Sequence record: OQ973471.1 | Reading direction: 5' to 3' (one strand) | Source: Escherichia phage AV101 | DNA length: 64,000 nt | Shown here: positions 10,361 to 62,766 of the stretch, one piece after another | How the letters are laid out: the number at the start of each line of letters is the position of its first letter | Position numbering within the stretch: the stretch's first letter is position 1 | The notes under the pieces: model-generated | What the model was told of the DNA's origin: nothing | Database searches by the model: none | Seen by the model: only the letters and a program-made list of their open reading frames with translations | Program-made: the position numbers and the translations under genes

Positions 10361-11020
10361 TCAGATTCCGTGGGCTTGTATTAGCTCACGGAGTCTCTGT
10401 TTTGAATATGTGGTATCCTCATCCGGAACCACAGCATTCGTCTTCCTGAGCAAGAACGCCTCTGAGTTCCAGTAGATGTCATCACGCAGAATCGTATCAT
10501 ATAGATGAATGAAACCAACGATCTTGTTCAGACCGACAAGGAACCAAATCGGGAACTTCTTGATGATGATGTCTGTCAGCAACGGTGGATGGCCTGTACC
10601 CGTCCCCTTGATGTACTCAATGAAGGTGCAGTTGCGCTCCCTTATGGCAGGGATCATCGCCCGCTCGAACTCCTCAAGGAAGTTATATGTGAAGTTCTCG
10701 TACAGCTTACGGTATTCATCATAATTGGCCTGAGCCTGGCGTGTAAGTAATGTCGTCACCCAGGTCTTGGGTGATTTGATGAAGTTGGCAATGATGTAGT
10801 TCTCTACCACTTCACCCTGTGATGACTCGAACCGACGGGCAAGGCGAGCAAACTGTTTGCACACGGCCTCCTTCGCCAAGAACGTCTCGAACTTGTAATT
10901 CATCGGTCCATACAAGCTGTAATCGAAGTCCTTAGTGGTGAAGTGCAGCTTGATCGCCATGAAGACACAGTAAACGTTGAACGCCCGCTCGAACTCCATC
11001 TTCTGCCACTCTGTTAGCAT
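10361..11020 (-). CDS. helicase loader (gp59-like)
   Basis: 219 aa; segment pattern matches the T4 gp59 sequence recalled from memory; AGAGGAA RBS. Confidence 0.45.
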   Translation of the reverse strand: MLTEWQKMEFERAFNVYCVFMAIKLHFTTKDFDYSLYGPMNYKFETFLAKEAVCKQFARLARRFESSQGEVVENYIIANFIKSPKTWVTTLLTRQAQANYDEYRKLYENFTYNFLEEFERAMIPAIRERNCTFIEYIKGTGTGHPPLLTDIIIKKFPIWFLVGLNKIVGFIHLYDTILRDDIYWNSEAFLLRKTNAVVPDEDTTYSKQRLRELIQAHGI

Positions 11021-11268
11021 TTGCGTTCCTCTTCTTTAATAAATTGCAATAACTCTTCCATCAGCCCTTTCTTCTTGATGAACTGTAACACCAGGATGAA
11101 GCGACGGAAGGAGCGGGGGACAACACGATAACCCTTCGCCCAGTAGTTCACAACATTAGAACAATCCAATAAACGAGCCAGCCCAGATTGTGACACCCCG
11201 AGGCTCAGCAGAACCTTGTACATGTACTTCTTGTCATTTACCGGAAGCTCTTTCATTCTTAAACTCAT
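11014..11268 (-). CDS. XRE-type helix-turn-helix protein
   Basis: LLSLGVSQSGLARLLDCSNVVNYWAKG HTH signature. Confidence 0.45.
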   Translation of the reverse strand: MSLRMKELPVNDKKYMYKVLLSLGVSQSGLARLLDCSNVVNYWAKGYRVVPRSFRRFILVLQFIKKKGLMEELLQFIKEEERKC

Positions 11269-11495: not shown

Positions 11496-11729
11496 TCACA
11501 CCTCTTTGTGATTCTTCATCTTGCGGACAGTGCCCACAAACCCAAGATCCTTCCCGCAATGGGTGCAGATAGCATGGCAAGCACGGTTCTCACGATAGGT
11601 GCTGTGTTTGCAGCGCCATTGCTTGAACGCCGAACGGGCAACTGGGATCACGGCGATCAAGAAGACGATGCCGGATATCTGAAGTTCAACCAAGAACTTC
11701 GCCCACCAGAAACTTATGTACTCACCCAT
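11496..11729 (-). CDS. small membrane protein with C-terminal Cys cluster
   Basis: Start ATG at 11729 overlaps ligase stop (ATGGGTGA); TM helix then C..H..C.HC. Confidence 0.4.
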   Translation of the reverse strand: MGEYISFWWAKFLVELQISGIVFLIAVIPVARSAFKQWRCKHSTYRENRACHAICTHCGKDLGFVGTVRKMKNHKEV

Positions 11730-13152
11730 TACTCTTCTCCAACAGGAATGCGATGTTTTCGATATACGCTTTCTGTATCGCATAGACTTCATCCAGTGTG
11801 TTGGCCACTTTCTTGTCAATGCGGACTTCTACAAGGCGAGGTAGGAACAAAGACTTCATCGCATCATCTGTCTTATCCTGTACGCCATTGGAGAGCACTG
11901 CGGCGATCTTGCCAATGTAGTCGCCCTGGTTCTCCCACATATGGCGTCTCAGCTCATCTGAGATCCCTGATACACCAACAACAAGCAGGCCGTCGGAAGT
12001 TTTACAAATCAGTGAGCCAAAAGTCTTGGCGTGTTTACCCTTCTTGTCGGCCTCGTTAAAGCCCACGATTTCAAGGTCACACTCAACCTCCATCTTCAGC
12101 TTCAGACCTTCAGAAGAAGTACCATCTTCCCACGGCATGTCTGCGGCCTTACATATCGTGCCTTCTTCTTTGCGAGCCAGCGCGTCTTTGAAGTGGTCGA
12201 CGGCTTCGGCAAATGAGTGAACAACACGAGTTTCCTGAACCTGAACCAGACCGTCGTCTTCATCAAACAGTTGCTGGATGATATCGAAGCGGCGCTCATA
12301 CGGGGTGTCCACGCGCTGGGCGTTGAACCATTGTTCATATGGCACAACATCCCACACCCGGTAGATCACCCGATAACGATCTTCTAGGGGTTCTCCTGTC
12401 TGAATCACGCTGTTGAGTTTACCGTTACCGACAGCACGAGGCAGGATGGTATTCGACTTGAGGTCAACAACGAGAAGTTCACCATGGAACACACTCTCAC
12501 CAATCCCCGCATCGTAGATCAGGTCTTTGAACACCAGTGAAAGGTTATCAACCGAACCACCTGCGATAAGGGAACCGGAGCGAGAGCGAATCTCAGGCTC
12601 TTTATTGTAACGACAGATGATGTTGGCGAACATACCGTCTGACTTCAGCTGGCTGTAGACACCACGCTTGAAGTCCATCTTCTTCAGCAGGTCAATCGTC
12701 ATGTTGTCATAACGATGATATGGAAGGATGTTGATCAGGCGTCCAGTACCTCCGGCGGCGTTGAATGCAGCGTTGATGCCCTTCTCAGCGATACCCGCCT
12801 TGATATCACGGTCTAGGATCATCTGAATGAGTTCGTGGTATTGGGGATCCATCTTCAGGGCGACAGAGGCCAACAGGGCATCAGCCTTTTGGCCACCGAC
12901 AAGGCGCTGCGCCATCTGGTCGAGGACGTCATAGACTTCGCTGATGTCATCAGTCTTCTCACGGACGAGCATGCGAGGATACGCGCTGAGTTTCAACTCA
13001 GTCCGATAGAACGACATCATTGGGTCATAGACATACTGCAGGAAGTCTGCCAAGTCTGGGTTGTTCTTGAATGCTTCGGTCAGCACGGCTTTCTTCGCAT
13101 TGCTGCCTTTGGTTTCGCGAAGTCGGTGGACTGTTTCAAGGATAGGGATCAT
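11722..13152 (-). CDS. ATP-dependent DNA ligase
   Basis: Adenylation motif KSDG (..QLKSDGMF..), 476 aa; GGAG RBS. Confidence 0.8.
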   Translation of the reverse strand: MIPILETVHRLRETKGSNAKKAVLTEAFKNNPDLADFLQYVYDPMMSFYRTELKLSAYPRMLVREKTDDISEVYDVLDQMAQRLVGGQKADALLASVALKMDPQYHELIQMILDRDIKAGIAEKGINAAFNAAGGTGRLINILPYHRYDNMTIDLLKKMDFKRGVYSQLKSDGMFANIICRYNKEPEIRSRSGSLIAGGSVDNLSLVFKDLIYDAGIGESVFHGELLVVDLKSNTILPRAVGNGKLNSVIQTGEPLEDRYRVIYRVWDVVPYEQWFNAQRVDTPYERRFDIIQQLFDEDDGLVQVQETRVVHSFAEAVDHFKDALARKEEGTICKAADMPWEDGTSSEGLKLKMEVECDLEIVGFNEADKKGKHAKTFGSLICKTSDGLLVVGVSGISDELRRHMWENQGDYIGKIAAVLSNGVQDKTDDAMKSLFLPRLVEVRIDKKVANTLDEVYAIQKAYIENIAFLLEKSNG

Positions 13153-13265
13153 GTGGTGTCTCCAGGGTTATATGTGCTGCTATTATAACCCTGGGGACTT
13201 CAATAGATTATTGGCGGGTACGGGATCTTGCCTGGCCGATAATGAGGTCAGTGTGTAGTCCTCGG

Positions 13266-13607
13266 TTATTTCTTCGGGGGTTCAATTGAGGTGAAAGAAT
13301 CCTTCCAACTCTTGAATTTTTCAACCAGAGCTTCTTTACCCAGCTCGTCATTTGACACGCTGTGAATATAGGCGAATGCTCCATAGCCGGATCCTGACAT
13401 AGCCTTGCAGATGCGCAGACTGACCAAAGAATCTCCTACGGAAACAAGATAGTGGTCACGACGATTGTTCAGGGCATAATGGTTGTCGTGAAACTTGTCA
13501 ACAATAACACAGTTCTGAGGTTCGACGTCAATCGGTAGCCCGTTGGCTTCGGATCCGCCGCGCCCAAGTACGCAGCCTGGGAATAATGTTTCTACGAGTG
13601 TGGTCAT
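13266..13607 (-). CDS. hypothetical protein
   Basis: 113 aa; AGGAA RBS; TATAAT -10 element upstream. Confidence 0.4.
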   Translation of the reverse strand: MTTLVETLFPGCVLGRGGSEANGLPIDVEPQNCVIVDKFHDNHYALNNRRDHYLVSVGDSLVSLRICKAMSGSGYGAFAYIHSVSNDELGKEALVEKFKSWKDSFTSIEPPKK

Positions 13608-13859
13608 GGTATGTTCCTTCTGTAAGTTCCCATGTATTATATGGGTGAATCGTTTAATGAATTATTTGTTATGGAAACCCAGAGCCTTGTGGACTTCTTC
13701 ACGATTTTAATTTCGGCCTGAGCCTCTGTGTGATTATCCGGTGCTTGTGATGTCAGACGAGGACTTTGTAAACAGCATTGGCGTCAATGGCATCGATTAG
13801 ACAACGGATCTCAGCGCATCAGGGGCTTACCCAACAGCCAGTTGAAATACTTGCGCATG

Positions 13860-14072
13860 TCACTTCCTCATCAGTGAGAGCAGGTTGACCGTAGCCGGGC
13901 GCGCATCAGGGGCGTAGAAGACGTCCTGAGAGTGCCTCTTACAGCACGGGCAATCCTTCGTGGCGATTACACAGGGAGCCTTGTCCACGGCAAATCCAGC
14001 GGCTTCGGCTTCCTTCACAGTGGTGAACGGCAGGTAAGCACTTGTGCCCTGCCCTCCGCATGAACATTCCAT
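13860..14072 (-). CDS. small Cys-rich protein
   Basis: ATG at 14072 after AAGAGGAAA RBS; C.CGG...C....C.CC pattern. Confidence 0.4.
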   Translation of the reverse strand: MECSCGGQGTSAYLPFTTVKEAEAAGFAVDKAPCVIATKDCPCCKRHSQDVFYAPDARPATVNLLSLMRK

Positions 14073-14188
14073 CAACGTTTCCTCTTAAAGGGGATGACCA
14101 GGGCTATGATGAGAAGCATAGCTGTAATCATCCCACATGCTATCAGACCGAAGGCGAACGACTTCAGAACAAACTCAATCAAATTCAT
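14072..14188 (-). CDS. 38-aa hydrophobic peptide (not in ORF track)
   Basis: ATG overlaps stop of upstream gene (ATGA) and its own stop overlaps next ATG (TGATG); translation MNLIEFVLKSFAFGLIACGMITAMLLIIALVIPFKRKR. Confidence 0.35.
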   Translation of the reverse strand: MNLIEFVLKSFAFGLIACGMITAMLLIIALVIPFKRKR

Positions 14189-15378
14189 AATTTCCTCAAT
14201 TTGGCTCTGGTGACCTGAGTTTGTTTAACGCCGTTGTACTCAGTCAGTTCTTTGACACGACCACGGATGATCATATCGCCCTGCAAGAACTCTGTATCCA
14301 TATAAGAGGTCTTCCAGGTAATTGTATTACCTTCTGCTGTTTTGAAAGTAAACAGGTAGCTATCACCATATTCATTGGAGAAGAGGAAGGTGCGCTTGTC
14401 GAACCTGACTTGCACTTCCAGCATTTCACCGACTTCACCCACCCATTTGTTCTCCGCCTTGCGGTCAGCACGAGGACGATGGATGTAATCGTAATACTTC
14501 TTGGCACCCCAGCGGACTGTGTTGTTATCCTTGATGAGGTGATAACCGGGTTCACACATGCGTTTCAGGCGAACATTGAACTCATTAGATTCGGACAGCG
14601 CACTGATGAAAAGCTTCATATGGTACATTTCCGACTCGGCGTCTTCACAGTATTCGTGTGCCTTGTTTACGAAATACTCTTCATCGGAACCTGCTTTTGG
14701 TTTCTGATGAGACCGGACATAGCCCAGTACTTTGTCAAACAGTTCAGACTTGATATCCACGCCTGCCAGCATCACCTGGAAGCATGCACGCAGGAAACTG
14801 TGGGTGTCAGTGAAGCGCTCATTTTGGACGCGATATATACCCTCTGGGTCGTCCTCGTCTGGCATGAAGAACTCTTGGATTTCCAGATAGTAAGACATAA
14901 TCGCGTCAAGCGATTTCTGATGAGGTACATAATGATGCATACAGGTGCTACCAATCAGCATCTGGGCATGCGTTTCCTCATTTTCAATCACATACGTGTT
15001 CTTGCGACGGATGACTAGATTGCAATGCTGACACCAAGAGACGTTCTCTGTCTCGAAGCGACGGATGAATTCTGGGTTGATGTTGTCAACCAGTTTGTTC
15101 AGAATGACCTTTGGATATTCATGATTGAACTGACCGATGATCTTCCAGCCACCATAAGAGACGGGGCGGTCAATGCCTTCGCCTTCGAGAGTAACAGGTT
15201 TCCACCAGTGAGTAAGGATCTCACCAGTGAAGTCGCGGGTGTGGGTTTTGAAGGGTTCACCATAAGTCACAGTCGGAAACGGAACACCCAACCTTTCGGC
15301 AGTGCGCTCGAGCTTCTTCAGTCGCTCAACTACCAACCCTTCATTGTCGATCGGAATATTGAATGTTTTGACGTTCAT
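14185..15378 (-). CDS. hypothetical protein with putative zinc-binding Cys/His cluster
   Basis: Start refined to ATG 15378 (GAGG RBS); WCQHCN...STCMHH cluster; own promoter and terminator. Confidence 0.45.
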   Translation of the reverse strand: MNVKTFNIPIDNEGLVVERLKKLERTAERLGVPFPTVTYGEPFKTHTRDFTGEILTHWWKPVTLEGEGIDRPVSYGGWKIIGQFNHEYPKVILNKLVDNINPEFIRRFETENVSWCQHCNLVIRRKNTYVIENEETHAQMLIGSTCMHHYVPHQKSLDAIMSYYLEIQEFFMPDEDDPEGIYRVQNERFTDTHSFLRACFQVMLAGVDIKSELFDKVLGYVRSHQKPKAGSDEEYFVNKAHEYCEDAESEMYHMKLFISALSESNEFNVRLKRMCEPGYHLIKDNNTVRWGAKKYYDYIHRPRADRKAENKWVGEVGEMLEVQVRFDKRTFLFSNEYGDSYLFTFKTAEGNTITWKTSYMDTEFLQGDMIIRGRVKELTEYNGVKQTQVTRAKLRKL

Positions 15379-15421
15379 TTCCAGCCTCATGATGTAGTTG
15401 TAACTCTTCAATACAGATTAA

Positions 15422-15450
15422 ATATTAGGCGATTATTTCTTGAAAGTAAA
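15422..15450 (-). promoter_or_regulatory. putative sigma70-type promoter TTTACT-17-TAATAT
   Basis: Minus-strand hexamers with 17-nt spacer upstream of gene starting at 15378. Confidence 0.4.
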
Positions 15451-15462
15451 GTTATTGAAGTT

Positions 15463-15486
15463 AAAAAGCCCAGTACTTGACTGGGC
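15463..15486 (-). terminator. intrinsic terminator
   Basis: Stem GCCCAGT/ACTGGGC with 5-nt loop followed by T-run on minus strand. Confidence 0.6.
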
Positions 15487-15505
15487 TTCTTGGTGTTCTA
15501 TTGAC

Positions 15506-15820
15506 TTATTCGCCACTGGCATTCGGATCTCGATCGGGCTTGGCGTTCGGGAATAGAGACTCGTATAAGTCTTGATATTTCTCGCTCGTTTCGATCGTCT
15601 TATGGTAAGTTCCATTGGCGCGGTCGGATACAACCTTGCGCAAGTCGCTGGCCTTGATACCCGTGTCTTTCGCCAGCTCGGCCAGAGTCTCAGTAATGAA
15701 AGTCTGTTCTGACTTGATGCGGACCTGGGCGGCACGACAGTTTTCAATTGCACCTATCAGCTTGCGACGGGATTCAGGATCAGATGGTAGTACATAAAAG
15801 CCGATTTGTTCTACAGACAT
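15506..15820 (-). CDS. hypothetical protein
   Basis: AGAGGAA RBS; 104 aa; followed by intrinsic terminator. Confidence 0.45.
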   Translation of the reverse strand: MSVEQIGFYVLPSDPESRRKLIGAIENCRAAQVRIKSEQTFITETLAELAKDTGIKASDLRKVVSDRANGTYHKTIETSEKYQDLYESLFPNAKPDRDPNASGE

Positions 15821-15835
15821 TTGGTGTTCCTCTTG

Positions 15836-16171
15836 TTAAGATCTCATACCTTGTGGGATCAGATTAGTCCCGCAACGGCGTAAAAAGAAGTTTACGATTG
15901 AGTGATACTGGAACTTCGGGATGATCTCTACACCATCTTCCGTCGTATACCATTCCACTGTGTTGGTGCGCACTGGAAGGGGAAATGACGGCAGATCCAG
16001 CTGTACGAGTTCACCCTCTTGGCATATCATACCAATTCCATATTCCTCCCAGATTTTACGATTGTTGAAGAACTCCAGAGTCTGCTCCGGACTCAGCTCA
16101 ATCGCTTGTTTGGTGTGGCACACCTGTTTGGCGGCCTGCACCAGGCCAGCCATAAAATCATTGTGTGACAT
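15836..16171 (-). CDS. hypothetical protein
   Basis: AGGAG RBS; TTCAAT-16-TATAAT promoter upstream. Confidence 0.45.
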   Translation of the reverse strand: MSHNDFMAGLVQAAKQVCHTKQAIELSPEQTLEFFNNRKIWEEYGIGMICQEGELVQLDLPSFPLPVRTNTVEWYTTEDGVEIIPKFQYHSIVNFFLRRCGTNLIPQGMRS

Positions 16172-16203
16172 GATGTGCTCCTGGTTTACATTCAGATCAT
16201 AGA

Positions 16204-16231
16204 ATTATACCCTATGACCTGCTTTATTGAA
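16204..16231 (-). promoter_or_regulatory. putative sigma70-type promoter TTCAAT-16-TATAAT
   Basis: Minus-strand hexamers with 16-nt spacer upstream of gene starting at 16171. Confidence 0.4.
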
Positions 16232-16235
16232 TTGC

Positions 16236-17660
16236 CTAGAATTTCCAATTATTGACTGTTTGGGCTTTCTGCTCATCACTGGCAGTAGCCCCGGACTTGT
16301 TGAGGTCATGTTTGATGTGTACGTTTTCGACATATTTGGCCTCAGCCTCAGTCAGGTCCTTCTTAACTTCGTTCCAGTCCAGGTCAAACAGGATCTGTTT
16401 GTCTTGGTCCATACCAAACAGGAATGATTTCAGCTTCTGCTTGTTGGCATAACGGTTCTTGAGTATTGAGGCTCGGGCTTTCTTGACCGCCGCCAGTTCG
16501 TCAGGAGCATAGAATGCCATGATGAAGTCGGCCACCTTCGGAATACCGATAGCATCTGCCAAATCACTGATTCCACCATCAGTGCTATTCTGATTCTCAC
16601 GATTGAACTGCATACCAGTCCATACAGGGACATCAAACTCAAATCCCAGCGCACGAAACTCACGAGCCACAGACGTGTAATAGACGTTCGTGTTCTGCAT
16701 CAGGTGGGCAGGCAGGCGCGAGGAAGCAGCTTCGCCAAGATAGTCAATAACGATAACATCAGGAGCACGACCAGTTGCCTGGATGTACTCAAGGATATCG
16801 CGGCGGAATAAACCTGTGTGTCCGGTACCGGAAGGATATTCCTTGATGACGATATCACCCTTGGGCGCACCATCTTGGCGACTGCGGAGCTTCTCTATCG
16901 TTGCAATATACTCGTGCCTTGTGAGTTTCTCTAAAGACTCAAAGTCACGACGCATGATACGGGCATCAAGACGGTGTCGCCAGACGTTCTCGGCCACTTC
17001 AAGGGTGAAGACAAAGACGTTCAGCCCCTGCTCCGAGTACCCTGCGGTCAGGTCAATCAGCGTTGTGGTCTTACCTGCGTTGATCGCACCTGTTACGATG
17101 TTCAGTGTCTTCTTACCAACGCCACCACGTGTCGCCTTATTGAATATCTCAACTGCGAACGGGATCTTGGCCTCGTTGGAGTTCATGTGGTCATACTGCT
17201 CTGCCGCCATCTCCCAATAGATGTGACCGAGGTATGAATCAAACCGGATCGCCAGGGCTTCCTGCAACATGGTCGGGATGTTGTTCATCTCGTCCTTGCG
17301 CTTCTCGTCACCGTAGATGTTAACGGCGGTCTTGATTGCGTTGTGTACGGCCTTTTGCCGCGCCCAAGCCTCGGTTTCCTTCGCCAGCCACTCTTCATTG
17401 AAGGTGTTGTCGTTGATGTTCTCCAGGGCAGATACCGCCTGGTCAAACACATATTCGTTCAGCTTTGTCCGTTCAAGAATTATAGATAGTGCTTCGACAG
17501 ACGGGCGGGCATTGTACTCTGAGGTATAACTGTCAATCAGACCAAAGATGACCTTTTCGCCTTCGTTGTCAAAATAATCGGCTTTCAGGTACGGCAGGAT
17601 CTTTCTTTGGTAATCTTCATTGTAAATCAACTGTGAAAGCACGACAGATTCGAGTAACAT
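16236..17660 (-). CDS. replicative DNA helicase (DnaB family, gp41-like)
   Basis: Walker A GAINAGKTT, DnaB-like architecture, 474 aa. Confidence 0.85.
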   Translation of the reverse strand: MLLESVVLSQLIYNEDYQRKILPYLKADYFDNEGEKVIFGLIDSYTSEYNARPSVEALSIILERTKLNEYVFDQAVSALENINDNTFNEEWLAKETEAWARQKAVHNAIKTAVNIYGDEKRKDEMNNIPTMLQEALAIRFDSYLGHIYWEMAAEQYDHMNSNEAKIPFAVEIFNKATRGGVGKKTLNIVTGAINAGKTTTLIDLTAGYSEQGLNVFVFTLEVAENVWRHRLDARIMRRDFESLEKLTRHEYIATIEKLRSRQDGAPKGDIVIKEYPSGTGHTGLFRRDILEYIQATGRAPDVIVIDYLGEAASSRLPAHLMQNTNVYYTSVAREFRALGFEFDVPVWTGMQFNRENQNSTDGGISDLADAIGIPKVADFIMAFYAPDELAAVKKARASILKNRYANKQKLKSFLFGMDQDKQILFDLDWNEVKKDLTEAEAKYVENVHIKHDLNKSGATASDEQKAQTVNNWKF

Positions 17661-26349: not shown

Positions 26350-27360
26350 TCAGTTAGACTTGAGATACTGCTCGAATTCGTCAATGGAAGCCGTGTTTCT
26401 GGCATTCGGTTGAGCCTGAGCCTGAGACGGCGCGGCCTGTTGCTGTTTCAGGCTATCTTGAGCAGTTGGCTGATGCGTAGTCTGGGTGCTAGGAGCATGA
26501 GCCATCGTGGCTGCACCACCTTCAACCAGAGGCTGGTCATCAGGGATTGCCAGAACTTTGCGCAGGCGCTTTTCCAGGGAGTCGTAGTCTTTGAAGTTAG
26601 CCGGATTGAAGAATTCAAACAGGCTGTGCTCGCGAGACCAGACGTCTTCCATATACGCTTCGTCATCACTCAGCGGGGCAGGGTTCTCCCACACCACCTT
26701 ACTGAAGTTTGCCACCAGACCTTCCCAGTTCCCAAACTTCTTCTGCTCGCCAAAGAGCTTCAGGTTCAGGTTGGCACCTTCCCACAGATCGAACGGATCG
26801 AATTTAGGGTCGGTTGGGAACTTAGGATTCTGCGCCTGATCCAGGATTTTCTTGATGGCGTTACCAAATTCCAGCAGGAAGACCTTGCCGTTGTTTTCCG
26901 GTACGTTGACATCTTTGATCACCAGAATGTTAGCGTAGTATTTGGTGTCGGGTAGACGTTTCTTCAGGATGTCCTTCAGCTTTTCGTCGTTCGTTTCTTT
27001 CTGCTGCGCCCACAGCGGACGGTCATGGTCGCGCACCGGATCGTCGTTACCGAACGTCTGAGGTGAGTTCTCAATATACCAACCACCAGGTCCCTGGAAC
27101 TGATGCTTCATGATCATGGCACAAGGGGTAAGGATCTGATCTTTATCGATCGTTCCTTCTTCCTGTGCCTTGAGGTCTACCAGCGGGACTGGCAGGAAGC
27201 GGATGATGTTCTCAGAGATACCATCTTTGTTCCAAGTCCATTTCCAGATGCGAGGATCCTTCTGGAAACCGGACTTCTGGCCTTGCTGTGCAAGACGAGC
27301 CTGCATTGCTTCAGTTTGCTGGCCGCGAGACGCTTTCAGACGATCGAATAAATTACCCAT
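26350..27360 (-). CDS. single-stranded DNA-binding protein gp32
   Basis: IRFLP, YYANILVIKD, PENNGKVF, WEGANLNLK match T4 gp32 core; acidic/Gln-rich C-terminal tail. Confidence 0.85.
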   Translation of the reverse strand: MGNLFDRLKASRGQQTEAMQARLAQQGQKSGFQKDPRIWKWTWNKDGISENIIRFLPVPLVDLKAQEEGTIDKDQILTPCAMIMKHQFQGPGGWYIENSPQTFGNDDPVRDHDRPLWAQQKETNDEKLKDILKKRLPDTKYYANILVIKDVNVPENNGKVFLLEFGNAIKKILDQAQNPKFPTDPKFDPFDLWEGANLNLKLFGEQKKFGNWEGLVANFSKVVWENPAPLSDDEAYMEDVWSREHSLFEFFNPANFKDYDSLEKRLRKVLAIPDDQPLVEGGAATMAHAPSTQTTHQPTAQDSLKQQQAAPSQAQAQPNARNTASIDEFEQYLKSN

Positions 27361-40664: not shown

Positions 40665-40802
40665 GATGTAATTCCTCATAATGTAGTTGGTTCATTTCAC
40701 TTTTCATTCGGCGGTGTGTTACCGCCCTATGTGAACTATAATAGTGTATCATTATTGAAGAGTAAAGTCTTTTTCAATAAATTTTTAAATAATTTTGAAG
40801 TA

Positions 40803-60406: not shown

Positions 60407-60485
60407 GGTGATTCTCCTTATTTCATTGGATGAAATGATAGGCGGCTCACCATGTTGAGTAAAGGGATTCAATAAACTATCGTAT

Positions 60486-62644: not shown

Positions 62645-62766
62645 GTTATAATCTTACCTTTCAACCCGGTGAACCCATCGTTCGCCAGTTATTGAATAAT
62701 AGGACATTCCTTAGAGGAAGTAAACCCCTAAAAGTAAAAATCCCCAACGTTTGTTGGGGACTTCTG

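Follow-up and report, generated by a model that had tools for sequence, protein, structure and literature searches.

Several proteins that bind single-stranded DNA (ssDNA) combine a zinc site with an OB fold, e.g. T4 gp32, RPA70 DBD-C, Mcm10-ID and RecO, in which a structural zinc site cooperates with the OB fold. PrgE, a non-canonical OB protein of a mobile element, binds both ssDNA and double-stranded DNA (PMC11137577). Here we analyze a gene for a 397-residue protein in a stretch of 64,000 nucleotides of Escherichia phage AV101 (record OQ973471.1; the whole stretch is referred to below as the window) whose predicted structure contains both a zinc-type module and an OB fold. We propose that the protein binds single-stranded nucleic acid, most likely ssDNA, in a zinc-dependent manner and serves as an early accessory factor of mobile elements, and we put the probability of this reading at roughly 45%. 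We favor it because the protein has a zinc-type site on a basic hairpin, a basic OB fold of the type found in single-stranded DNA-binding proteins (SSBs) and an acidic helical domain, and because its gene has an early-type promoter and lies in the replication block of the phage and, on some plasmids, among DNA-processing genes. The analysis shows a conserved gene, its module boundaries, invariant residues, OB fold and charge pattern, a conserved promoter and terminator, and the spread of the family in phages and plasmids; zinc binding, nucleic-acid ligand, time of expression, partner and biological role are all points that we infer.

Family and predicted architecture

Profile searches place the protein in PHROG 2319 (KVP40.0369-like), a family already catalogued as "hypothetical protein", with residues 1-396 matching positions 1-398 of the 399 in the profile (E 9.1e-158). 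Distant members, including those of actinophages and phiCbK-like phages, also match phrog_2319, and this was true of every variant tested. When 1.84 billion representative proteins (clusters at 50% identity) were searched exhaustively with a profile, 8,526 family representatives were obtained at E<=1e-3, of which 4,357 reached E<=1e-10; the best 150 of the 8,526 are nearly all 370-430 residues long and align over their full length. Pfam gave nothing above threshold for the AV101 protein or 54 diverse relatives (OB_YrrC, PF23139, matched 4 of the 54 weakly), NCBIfam and PADLOC scans of the protein and its relatives gave nothing significant, and sequence searches of the PDB with the single sequence and with two profiles returned no match to it. 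Domain profiles found no paralogue in the window. Homologues recovered in word-index protein searches are named "hypothetical protein" throughout and carry no precomputed Pfam domains, and a literature search on locus tags, PHROG 2319, Ackermannviridae transcriptomics and zinc/OB proteins returned nothing on the family. The first-pass annotation of this DNA, which was made from the letters alone, had seen no motif in the protein that it could place, and these searches bear it out; a confident assignment to a known housekeeping family, which that annotation had named as the outcome that would overturn its view, did not emerge from Pfam, NCBIfam or the PDB.

One GenBank record offers a function: cecavS50_042 of PQ306799, which is 98% identical in nucleotide sequence, is labeled as a RecT-like single-strand annealing protein. 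A zinc/OB protein that binds ssDNA could in principle anneal strands, as RecO does. However, neither the protein nor the 54 relatives match RecT (PF03837), ERF or Rad52 in Pfam, all of the PHROG matches are to families of unknown function, the sole RecT entry found in BFVD scored E 0.28 with a probability of 0.08, and every other phage record among the matches listed, of 390, reads "hypothetical protein" or equivalent. We consider a RecT-like function extremely improbable and the label, present in at least one GenBank record, a mislabel. A RecT/Redbeta annealing protein was rejected as a candidate, as neither a profile match nor the Rad52-like beta-beta-beta-alpha fold was found.

Structure prediction, which the first-pass annotation had suggested as a check, gave four modules (Table 1), and only the OB fold matched structures in the PDB. 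The full-length AlphaFold model has a predicted local distance difference test (pLDDT) score of 80, and a second model, of residues 1-305 with 150 sequences, reached a pLDDT of 90.9 and a predicted TM-score of 0.76. The zinc module consists, in order, of a CxHC knuckle (C116, H118, C119), a basic beta-hairpin that carries R123/R125, T128, Y129, N133 and G143, and a helix that starts at C146 and includes D/H149; the predicted strands span residues 127-133 and 139-143 and the predicted helix residues 146-149. This arrangement (CxxC knuckle, hairpin, helix with the remaining ligands) is predicted to be treble-clef-like in topology, and C116, C119, C146 and D/H149 are the likely zinc ligands. The module is basic, with a median isoelectric point (pI) of 8.5 across the family. 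The Cys/His cluster WCQHCN...STCMHH (residues 115-120 and 144-149) picked out in the first pass holds in part: C116, C119 and C146 are the only invariant residues in alignments of 54-150 members, and H118 is conserved in ~96% of 145-150 diverse homologues (it is Asp in several Ackermannviridae), whereas H148 and H149 are not conserved, position 149 being Asp in 72% of the family and His in the AV101 protein. The family-wide contribution of STCMHH is C146 only. Near-invariant positions of the family are H118, R125, G143 and G206.

The treble-clef fold includes the His-Me fingers as one of its branches, and the protein could be read as a His-Me/HNH-like nuclease that is tethered to DNA by its OB fold. 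Some of the most conserved residues (E/D117, H118, N133 and D149) cluster in the zinc module, and residues 108-166 gave a weak PADLOC match to the Septu HNH protein PtuB (E 0.043). That match was obtained for one of five members and not for the four others, however, and no HNH-type family was among the Pfam matches reported for the 54 members. In our by-eye reading of the alignment the HNH general-base position, at the end of the first hairpin strand, is occupied by Asn133 and not by His, and the replacement of H118 by Asp in several Ackermannviridae also speaks against a nuclease. We judge a nuclease to be very improbable. An active HNH enzyme was rejected as a candidate, with neither the catalytic His in position nor an HNH-type family among the reported Pfam matches.

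A sub-threshold resemblance links the zinc knuckle and hairpin to ribosomal protein L36 (CEHCKVIRRKGRV; 12.6 bits versus a Pfam cut-off of 26.1), and L36 chains in the PDB scored E 1.6-4.2. Homology to L36 was rejected on these scores, which lie below the gathering threshold, and the likeness is treated as motif resemblance only.

The C-terminus, which had been described in the first pass as beta-rich, is modeled as a recognizable SSB-type OB fold covering residues ~317-397. A Foldseek search of the full model against the PDB matched the OB fold only, to PrgE, hSSB1, S. coelicolor SsbB, the OB-A domain of Teb1 and the anticodon-binding N-domain of AspRS (E 4e-3 to 0.2, probability 0.97-1.0, target TM-score 0.37-0.53), and a search against BFVD returned uncharacterized family members only. 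G314, G338, W355, K376, H378, Q386, T387 and R391 are near-invariant in the family alignments, the fold keeps the aromatic and basic residues Y337, W355, Y381, K376 and R391, and it is basic (family median pI 8.6). The helical domain between the zinc module and the OB fold is uniformly acidic (family median pI 5.05) and is predicted with a pLDDT of 96-98 over residues 190-300. Neither the acidic C-terminal tip (D-D-D-I-P-F type) nor the disordered linker of canonical SSBs is present in the protein, which ends after the OB fold with the basic RAKLRKL; it is not a canonical SSB.

Two alternatives bear on how the OB fold is read. The first is that the protein is a second, divergent SSB of the gp32 type, since T4 gp32 likewise has zinc and an OB fold. 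Against this, a separate gp32-like SSB is encoded at 26350..27360 and has no similarity to the 397-residue protein (BLASTP E 1.1), Pfam gave no gp32 match, the zinc module lies ~170 residues N-terminal of the OB fold and not inside it, and the C-terminus is basic and without an acidic tail. This is the least credible of all the readings, and a gp32 paralogue was rejected on the sequence comparison and the separation of zinc from OB. The second is that the protein is an RNA-binding regulator or an accessory of RNA/tRNA repair, with the L36-like knuckle and an anticodon-binding-type OB fold acting on structured RNA. The resemblance to L36 and the match to AspRS would fit such a role, and RlaP and tRNA nucleotidyltransferase genes are neighbors in some T4-like contigs. 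However, the L36 matches are far below threshold, the best OB matches are to DNA binders, the plasmid neighbors of the family are DNA-processing genes and the RNA-related neighbors are not conserved. We therefore regard an RNA-binding role as improbable.

The gene and its transcription unit

The 397-residue reading frame is a genuine protein-coding gene under strong purifying selection, because the ratio of nonsynonymous to synonymous substitution rates is 0.06-0.15 (0.075 versus Ag3, 0.058 versus phiD3 and 0.15 versus Menlow). It starts at ATG 15378-15376 (N-terminus MNVKTF), the start annotated in the GenBank orthologues, and the Shine-Dalgarno region is kept as a ATCATGAGG block in an alignment of six Ackermannviridae upstream regions. 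A longer TTG/ATG-extended start was rejected, as no annotated orthologue uses it and in PhaxI the upstream ATG falls outside the reading frame. The first-pass call of a real gene thus agrees with the reading frame, the orthologue starts and the low substitution ratios. Positions 13800-15900 of the window are 97-98% identical to Salmonella phage vB_CECAV_050 and Escherichia phages PC3, PH4 and LHE287 (Agtrevirus-type Ackermannviridae) and have 88-89% identity with Shigella phage Ag3 and Salmonella phage SKML-39, which places the genome, by nucleotide identity, among Agtrevirus-like Ackermannviridae.

The first-pass annotation had also proposed a TTTACT-17-TAATAT promoter for the gene. In the alignment of the six upstream regions, four genera (Ag3, phiD3, PhaxI and Menlow) preserve the two hexamers at a distance of 17 bp, and the spacer sequence drifts. 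The window contains four occurrences of the pattern TTTACT-N16-18-TANNAT where 0.21 are expected, all of them on the minus strand, and the proposal is upheld by both results. The promoter was not listed by a generic sigma-70 scan of positions 13000-17000, presumably because only 8 of the 12 consensus positions match by hand count. T4 early promoters typically have a -35 element of the GTTTAC type. TTTACT-N17-(C)CTAnnAT is probably the early-promoter type of the AV101 phage. Its three further copies, all on the minus strand, lie at 40738-40766, 60435-60463 and 62696-62724.

The terminator that the first pass had placed just upstream of the gene corresponds to a stable hairpin (folding free energy -16.8 kcal/mol, z -5.06) whose stem shows compensatory changes between genera in the same alignment. 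It ends the upstream unit, i.e. the DsbA-like regulator gene at 15506..15820. The terminator scanner listed this hairpin on the plus strand.

In contrast, the claim that the gene forms a stand-alone promoter-terminator unit did not survive: the stop codon of the gene overlaps the ATG of the first of two coupled small open reading frames (ORFs). No terminator was seen by eye directly 3' of the gene or the small ORFs, and the scan of positions 13000-17000 listed none there on the minus strand. The four-nucleotide overlap between the gene and the 38-residue ORF is also annotated in PQ306799, Ag3, PhaxI and Menlow, and the ORF is named a membrane protein in the Ag3 annotation. The gene thus appears to head a translationally coupled unit of three ORFs.

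Table 1. Positions of the gene, its predicted protein modules, associated signals and small ORFs in the window, and of DUF6283 genes near family members on other contigs.
Feature	Coordinates	Strand	Remarks
Coding sequence, 397-residue protein (PHROG 2319 member)	14185..15378	minus	ORF and translation; stop codon 14185-14187
Predicted N-terminal alpha/beta domain, residues 1-111 (beta-alpha-beta5-alpha)	15046..15378	minus	W78, H86, G66 conserved
Putative zinc module, residues 112-152	14923..15045	minus	most conserved part of the family
Predicted acidic all-alpha domain, residues 153-300	14479..14922	minus	G206 near-invariant, (N)D-Y-x-x-N-L-K motif
Predicted C-terminal OB fold, residues 317-397	14188..14430	minus	signature W355, K376, (H378), E380, Y381, K385-Q386-T387, R391
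Shine-Dalgarno GAGG	15385..15388	minus	6 nucleotides 5' of ATG; read from the sequence
Promoter-like element	15422..15450	minus	TTTACT 15450-15445, 17-bp spacer, TAATAT 15427-15422
Intrinsic terminator	15463..15491	minus	12-bp stem, 5-nucleotide loop, U run
38-residue hydrophobic (membrane) ORF	14072..14188	minus	ATG 14188-14186 overlaps TGA 14187-14185 of the 397-residue gene (ATGA)
70-residue Cys-rich ORF (phrog_4789)	13860..14072	minus	ATG overlaps stop of the 38-residue ORF by 1 nucleotide (TGATG)
DUF6283 gene near family members	L017 18861-19199; L018 12920-13390; L025/L026/L027 16048-16500; L028 16825-17289		

Several further features lie downstream of the gene. The 70-residue ORF matches phrog_4789 (E 1e-44) and, weakly, positions 1-67 of PHROG_114, the profile of the ATP-dependent DNA ligase (E 0.009); the protein may be fused to the ligase N-terminus in some phages. 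It is followed on the minus strand by a gene-free gap at 13608..13859 that holds only a 15-codon remnant (MRKYFNWLLGKPLMR*), right after the 70-residue ORF. The counterpart of this gap in Ag3 contains a 351-nucleotide gene, orf00051, and the gap looks like a deletion in AV101 and vB_CECAV_050. A hairpin without a U run at 13155..13198 on the minus strand (folding free energy -20.4 kcal/mol, z -5.3) lies just 5' of the ligase start (13152), and its 3' arm includes GGAG; it may control translation of the ligase.

Distribution, genomic context and proposed function

A tblastn search found the gene in 390-460 phage records. The Ackermannviridae among them infect Salmonella, Escherichia, Shigella, Klebsiella, Dickeya, Serratia and Erwinia, and the other carriers are KVP40-like and ~157-kb Vibrio phages, Cronobacter phage LPCS28, Aeromonas phages, phiCbK-like phages of Caulobacter, Rhodococcus phage Finch and Streptomyces phages. 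Matched Escherichia phage records numbered 28, and among the matches listed all were of Ackermannviridae size (~149-158 kb); T4-type coliphages therefore appear to lack a detectable homologue. The first-pass remark that T4 has nothing comparable is right for the T4-type coliphages, none of which is among the 390-460 phage matches, but does not extend to other Straboviridae, as KVP40-like Vibrio phages and Cronobacter phage LPCS28 carry the gene.

Five Ackermannviridae genera share one gene order, which runs from the gp41 helicase through a small ORF, the DsbA-like regulator and a spacer of 117-128 nucleotides to the 397-residue gene, with the ligase on its other side. As the first pass had noted, the gene lies between a ligase gene (11722..13152) and a helicase gene (DnaB/gp41-like, 16236..17660) in the window. 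The T4-like replication set of AV101 comprises a gp59-like loader, ligase, gp41-like helicase, UvsX, gp32-like SSB, gp61 primase, UvsY, clamp and clamp loader. The ORF for the gp59-like loader (window 10361..11268, minus strand) directly abuts the next small ORF; vB_CECAV_050 has a 696-nucleotide homing endonuclease gene between the two (contig L001, 1863-3464).

Members of the family were also found on 118 plasmid records, in 68 cases at full length, with hosts in Xanthomonas (pXCV183), Burkholderia, Halomonas, Marinobacter, Bordetella, Pseudomonas, Mycobacterium, Rhodococcus, Streptomyces and Nocardiopsis. Their neighbors include, at one locus, SSB, RdgC, ParA/B and TraC; at another, a toprim/topoisomerase fragment, Topo III, an ArdC-like zincin, an orphan methylase and H-NS; and at a third, a methylase, PcfJ and a DEAD-box helicase. 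At one plasmid locus the gene is part of a co-directional array of small genes that ends at a MobF relaxase. Genes for SSB and orphan methylases are reported to be among those enriched in plasmid leading regions (PMC11541004). The neighboring genes give the impression that the plasmid homologues may lie in leading regions. Neighborhoods were compared in four distant phages, two metagenomic T4-like contigs, about ten plasmids and several mycobacterial contigs, and across these no constant partner gene was found, save for a loose association with DNA-processing/establishment genes and DUF6283. On plasmids/contigs of Bordetella, Xanthomonas and mycobacteria, a DUF6283 gene recurs at a distance of ~2-9 kb from family members, and in the mycobacterial cases it is paired with DUF4031 (Table 1).

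Some family members are longer. A 584-residue protein of Marinobacter pMAQU01 (contig L020, 6962-8716) bears the RefSeq label ankyrin-repeat-containing, and a 562-residue protein of a Bordetella plasmid (contig L017, 8971-10659) is encoded directly 5' of the toprim/topoisomerase-fragment gene and Topo III. Among P0036 and P0166, one has two tandem OB folds and the other a 210-residue N-terminal extension. No Pfam domain was found in the ankyrin-labeled part, the N- and C-terminal extensions or the double OB of these longer members.

We propose the following sequence of events for the ssDNA-binder reading. A T4-early-like sigma-70 promoter would drive transcription of the gene, which comes first in a three-ORF unit of the replication/recombination block. 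A single strand would be held jointly by the zinc-finger hairpin and the OB fold, and docking onto a partner protein from DNA metabolism would fall to the N-terminal and acidic helical domains. The protein would act at an early stage on element DNA that is replicating or incoming, where it would (i) protect ssDNA or (ii) pass it to the replication/recombination machinery. The architecture is unchanged across elements of Actinomycetota, Pseudomonadota and Bacillota, which argues that the ligand is universal, e.g. DNA, and not a single target specific to one host.

Several observations weigh against this proposal. Position 378, a His in 91% of the family, is Leu in the AV101 protein. The E-values of the OB matches are weak (best 4e-3) and the matches span only 20% of the protein, and residues 1-305 have no informative structural relative, so that most of the protein is unexplained. 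AV101 already encodes a gp32-like SSB, gp59, gp41, gp61, UvsX and UvsY, which leaves no obvious vacant role in the replisome. Outside the Ackermannviridae the gene has no constant neighbors and is often found among small early genes of unknown function, and such a variable context fits host takeover or anti-defense equally well.

The last point leads to the main rival of the ssDNA-binder reading, i.e. that the protein is an anti-defense or host-takeover effector that binds or mimics a nucleic-acid intermediate, or sequesters a conserved host protein (e.g. SSB, RecA or a nuclease), and so blunts immunity at DNA entry. The gene is common to virulent phages and plasmids, and the plasmid copies lie in co-directional small-gene arrays with orphan methylases, an ArdC-like zincin, SSB and RdgC, the methylase and SSB genes being among those enriched in leading regions (PMC11541004). 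The copies of T4-like phages lie in variable early regions of small ORFs with no assigned function, and the acidic helical domain could be a surface that mimics a protein or DNA. However, the gene is syntenic and under strong purifying selection in five Ackermannviridae genera, and its four-module architecture is constant across bacterial phyla, whereas anti-defense genes are usually patchy and fast-evolving. PADLOC, moreover, gave no significant match. We consider this rival unlikely; the RNA-binding, HNH-like nuclease, RecT-like and second-gp32 readings are weaker still, and the last two fail direct tests.

A broader version of the ssDNA-binder reading, which we regard as doubtful, is that PHROG 2319 represents a new class of establishment factors of mobile elements, with two domains of previously unseen fold, that use their zinc finger and OB fold to load on the ssDNA exposed at entry or at the start of replication. 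The acidic domain would recruit or neutralize a conserved host protein, e.g. SSB, RecA, primase or topoisomerase, or a nuclease, and the establishment function would be common to virulent phages and conjugative or mega-plasmids.

The AV101 gene adds no new entity, and the family to which it belongs is large, widespread and structurally mostly unexplained. With its 8,526 representative clusters it is unusually large for a family without a description, and a single four-module architecture, three quarters of it without an informative structural relative, is kept across phages of Pseudomonadota, Actinomycetota and Bacillota and large plasmids. Should the zinc-finger/OB pair prove to bind ssDNA, the protein would be an accessory DNA-handling factor that is widespread and that standard annotation misses. 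Ackermannviridae are used in biocontrol of Salmonella, E. coli O157 and Dickeya, and the gene is conserved in their replication block.

Comparison with described systems

The closest relatives of the AV101 protein are the other PHROG 2319, or KVP40.0369-like, proteins, e.g. Ag3 orf00055, PhaxI gp04, Menlow gp070 and phiMAM1 gp157, which are homologous over their full length and have the same four modules. The genomic position of the Ackermannviridae members is as in AV101, and we found no difference between them and the 397-residue protein.

More distant relatives have the OB module only. It is common to phrog_30451, 3628, 4095 and 27218, and proteins of 230-320 residues with the same OB and a different N-terminal part were found on contigs of metagenome-assembled genomes (MAGs), mostly from gut (L030, L041, L043, L044, L046, L050 and L052). 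These shorter relatives share the last helices and the OB fold with K-x-H-x-E-Y-x-G-x-KQT-x-x-TR, and have other N-terminal parts in place of the CxHC...C module. A back-translated pattern of the OB signature matched 23 contigs, nearly all of them MAGs, in a genome collection of 185,579 species. Three of the MAG proteins (L041, L046 and L050) gave weak, sub-threshold matches to DnaJ-type CXXCXGXG or Anti-TRAP zinc fingers, the best DnaJ-type match reaching E 8e-4 and 20 bits against a cut-off of 32.7 bits. If the DnaJ-type matches are real, they suggest that zinc finger and OB form a functional pair. The OB looks like a mobile module, which may have been paired with a zinc finger repeatedly.

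The zinc ribbon of ribosomal L36, like the putative zinc module of the AV101 protein, has C-E/Q-H-C followed by a basic hairpin (RRK..Y-V-I). Unlike in L36, the third and fourth ligands lie elsewhere, and the AV101 protein is not ribosomal.

PrgE (of pCF10), hSSB1/SOSS-B1, S. coelicolor SsbB and Teb1 OB-A share the OB fold of the C-terminal ~80 residues, with an identity of only 10-18% and a best E of 4e-3. They are single-domain proteins of ~110-140 residues that do not have the N-terminal, zinc and helical domains. In gp32, RPA70 DBD-C, Mcm10-ID and RecO the module order is different from that of the AV101 protein, no sequence or fold match was detected, and in the AV101 protein a 150-residue helical domain separates zinc from OB; the likeness to these proteins lies only in the design principle of combining zinc with an OB fold.

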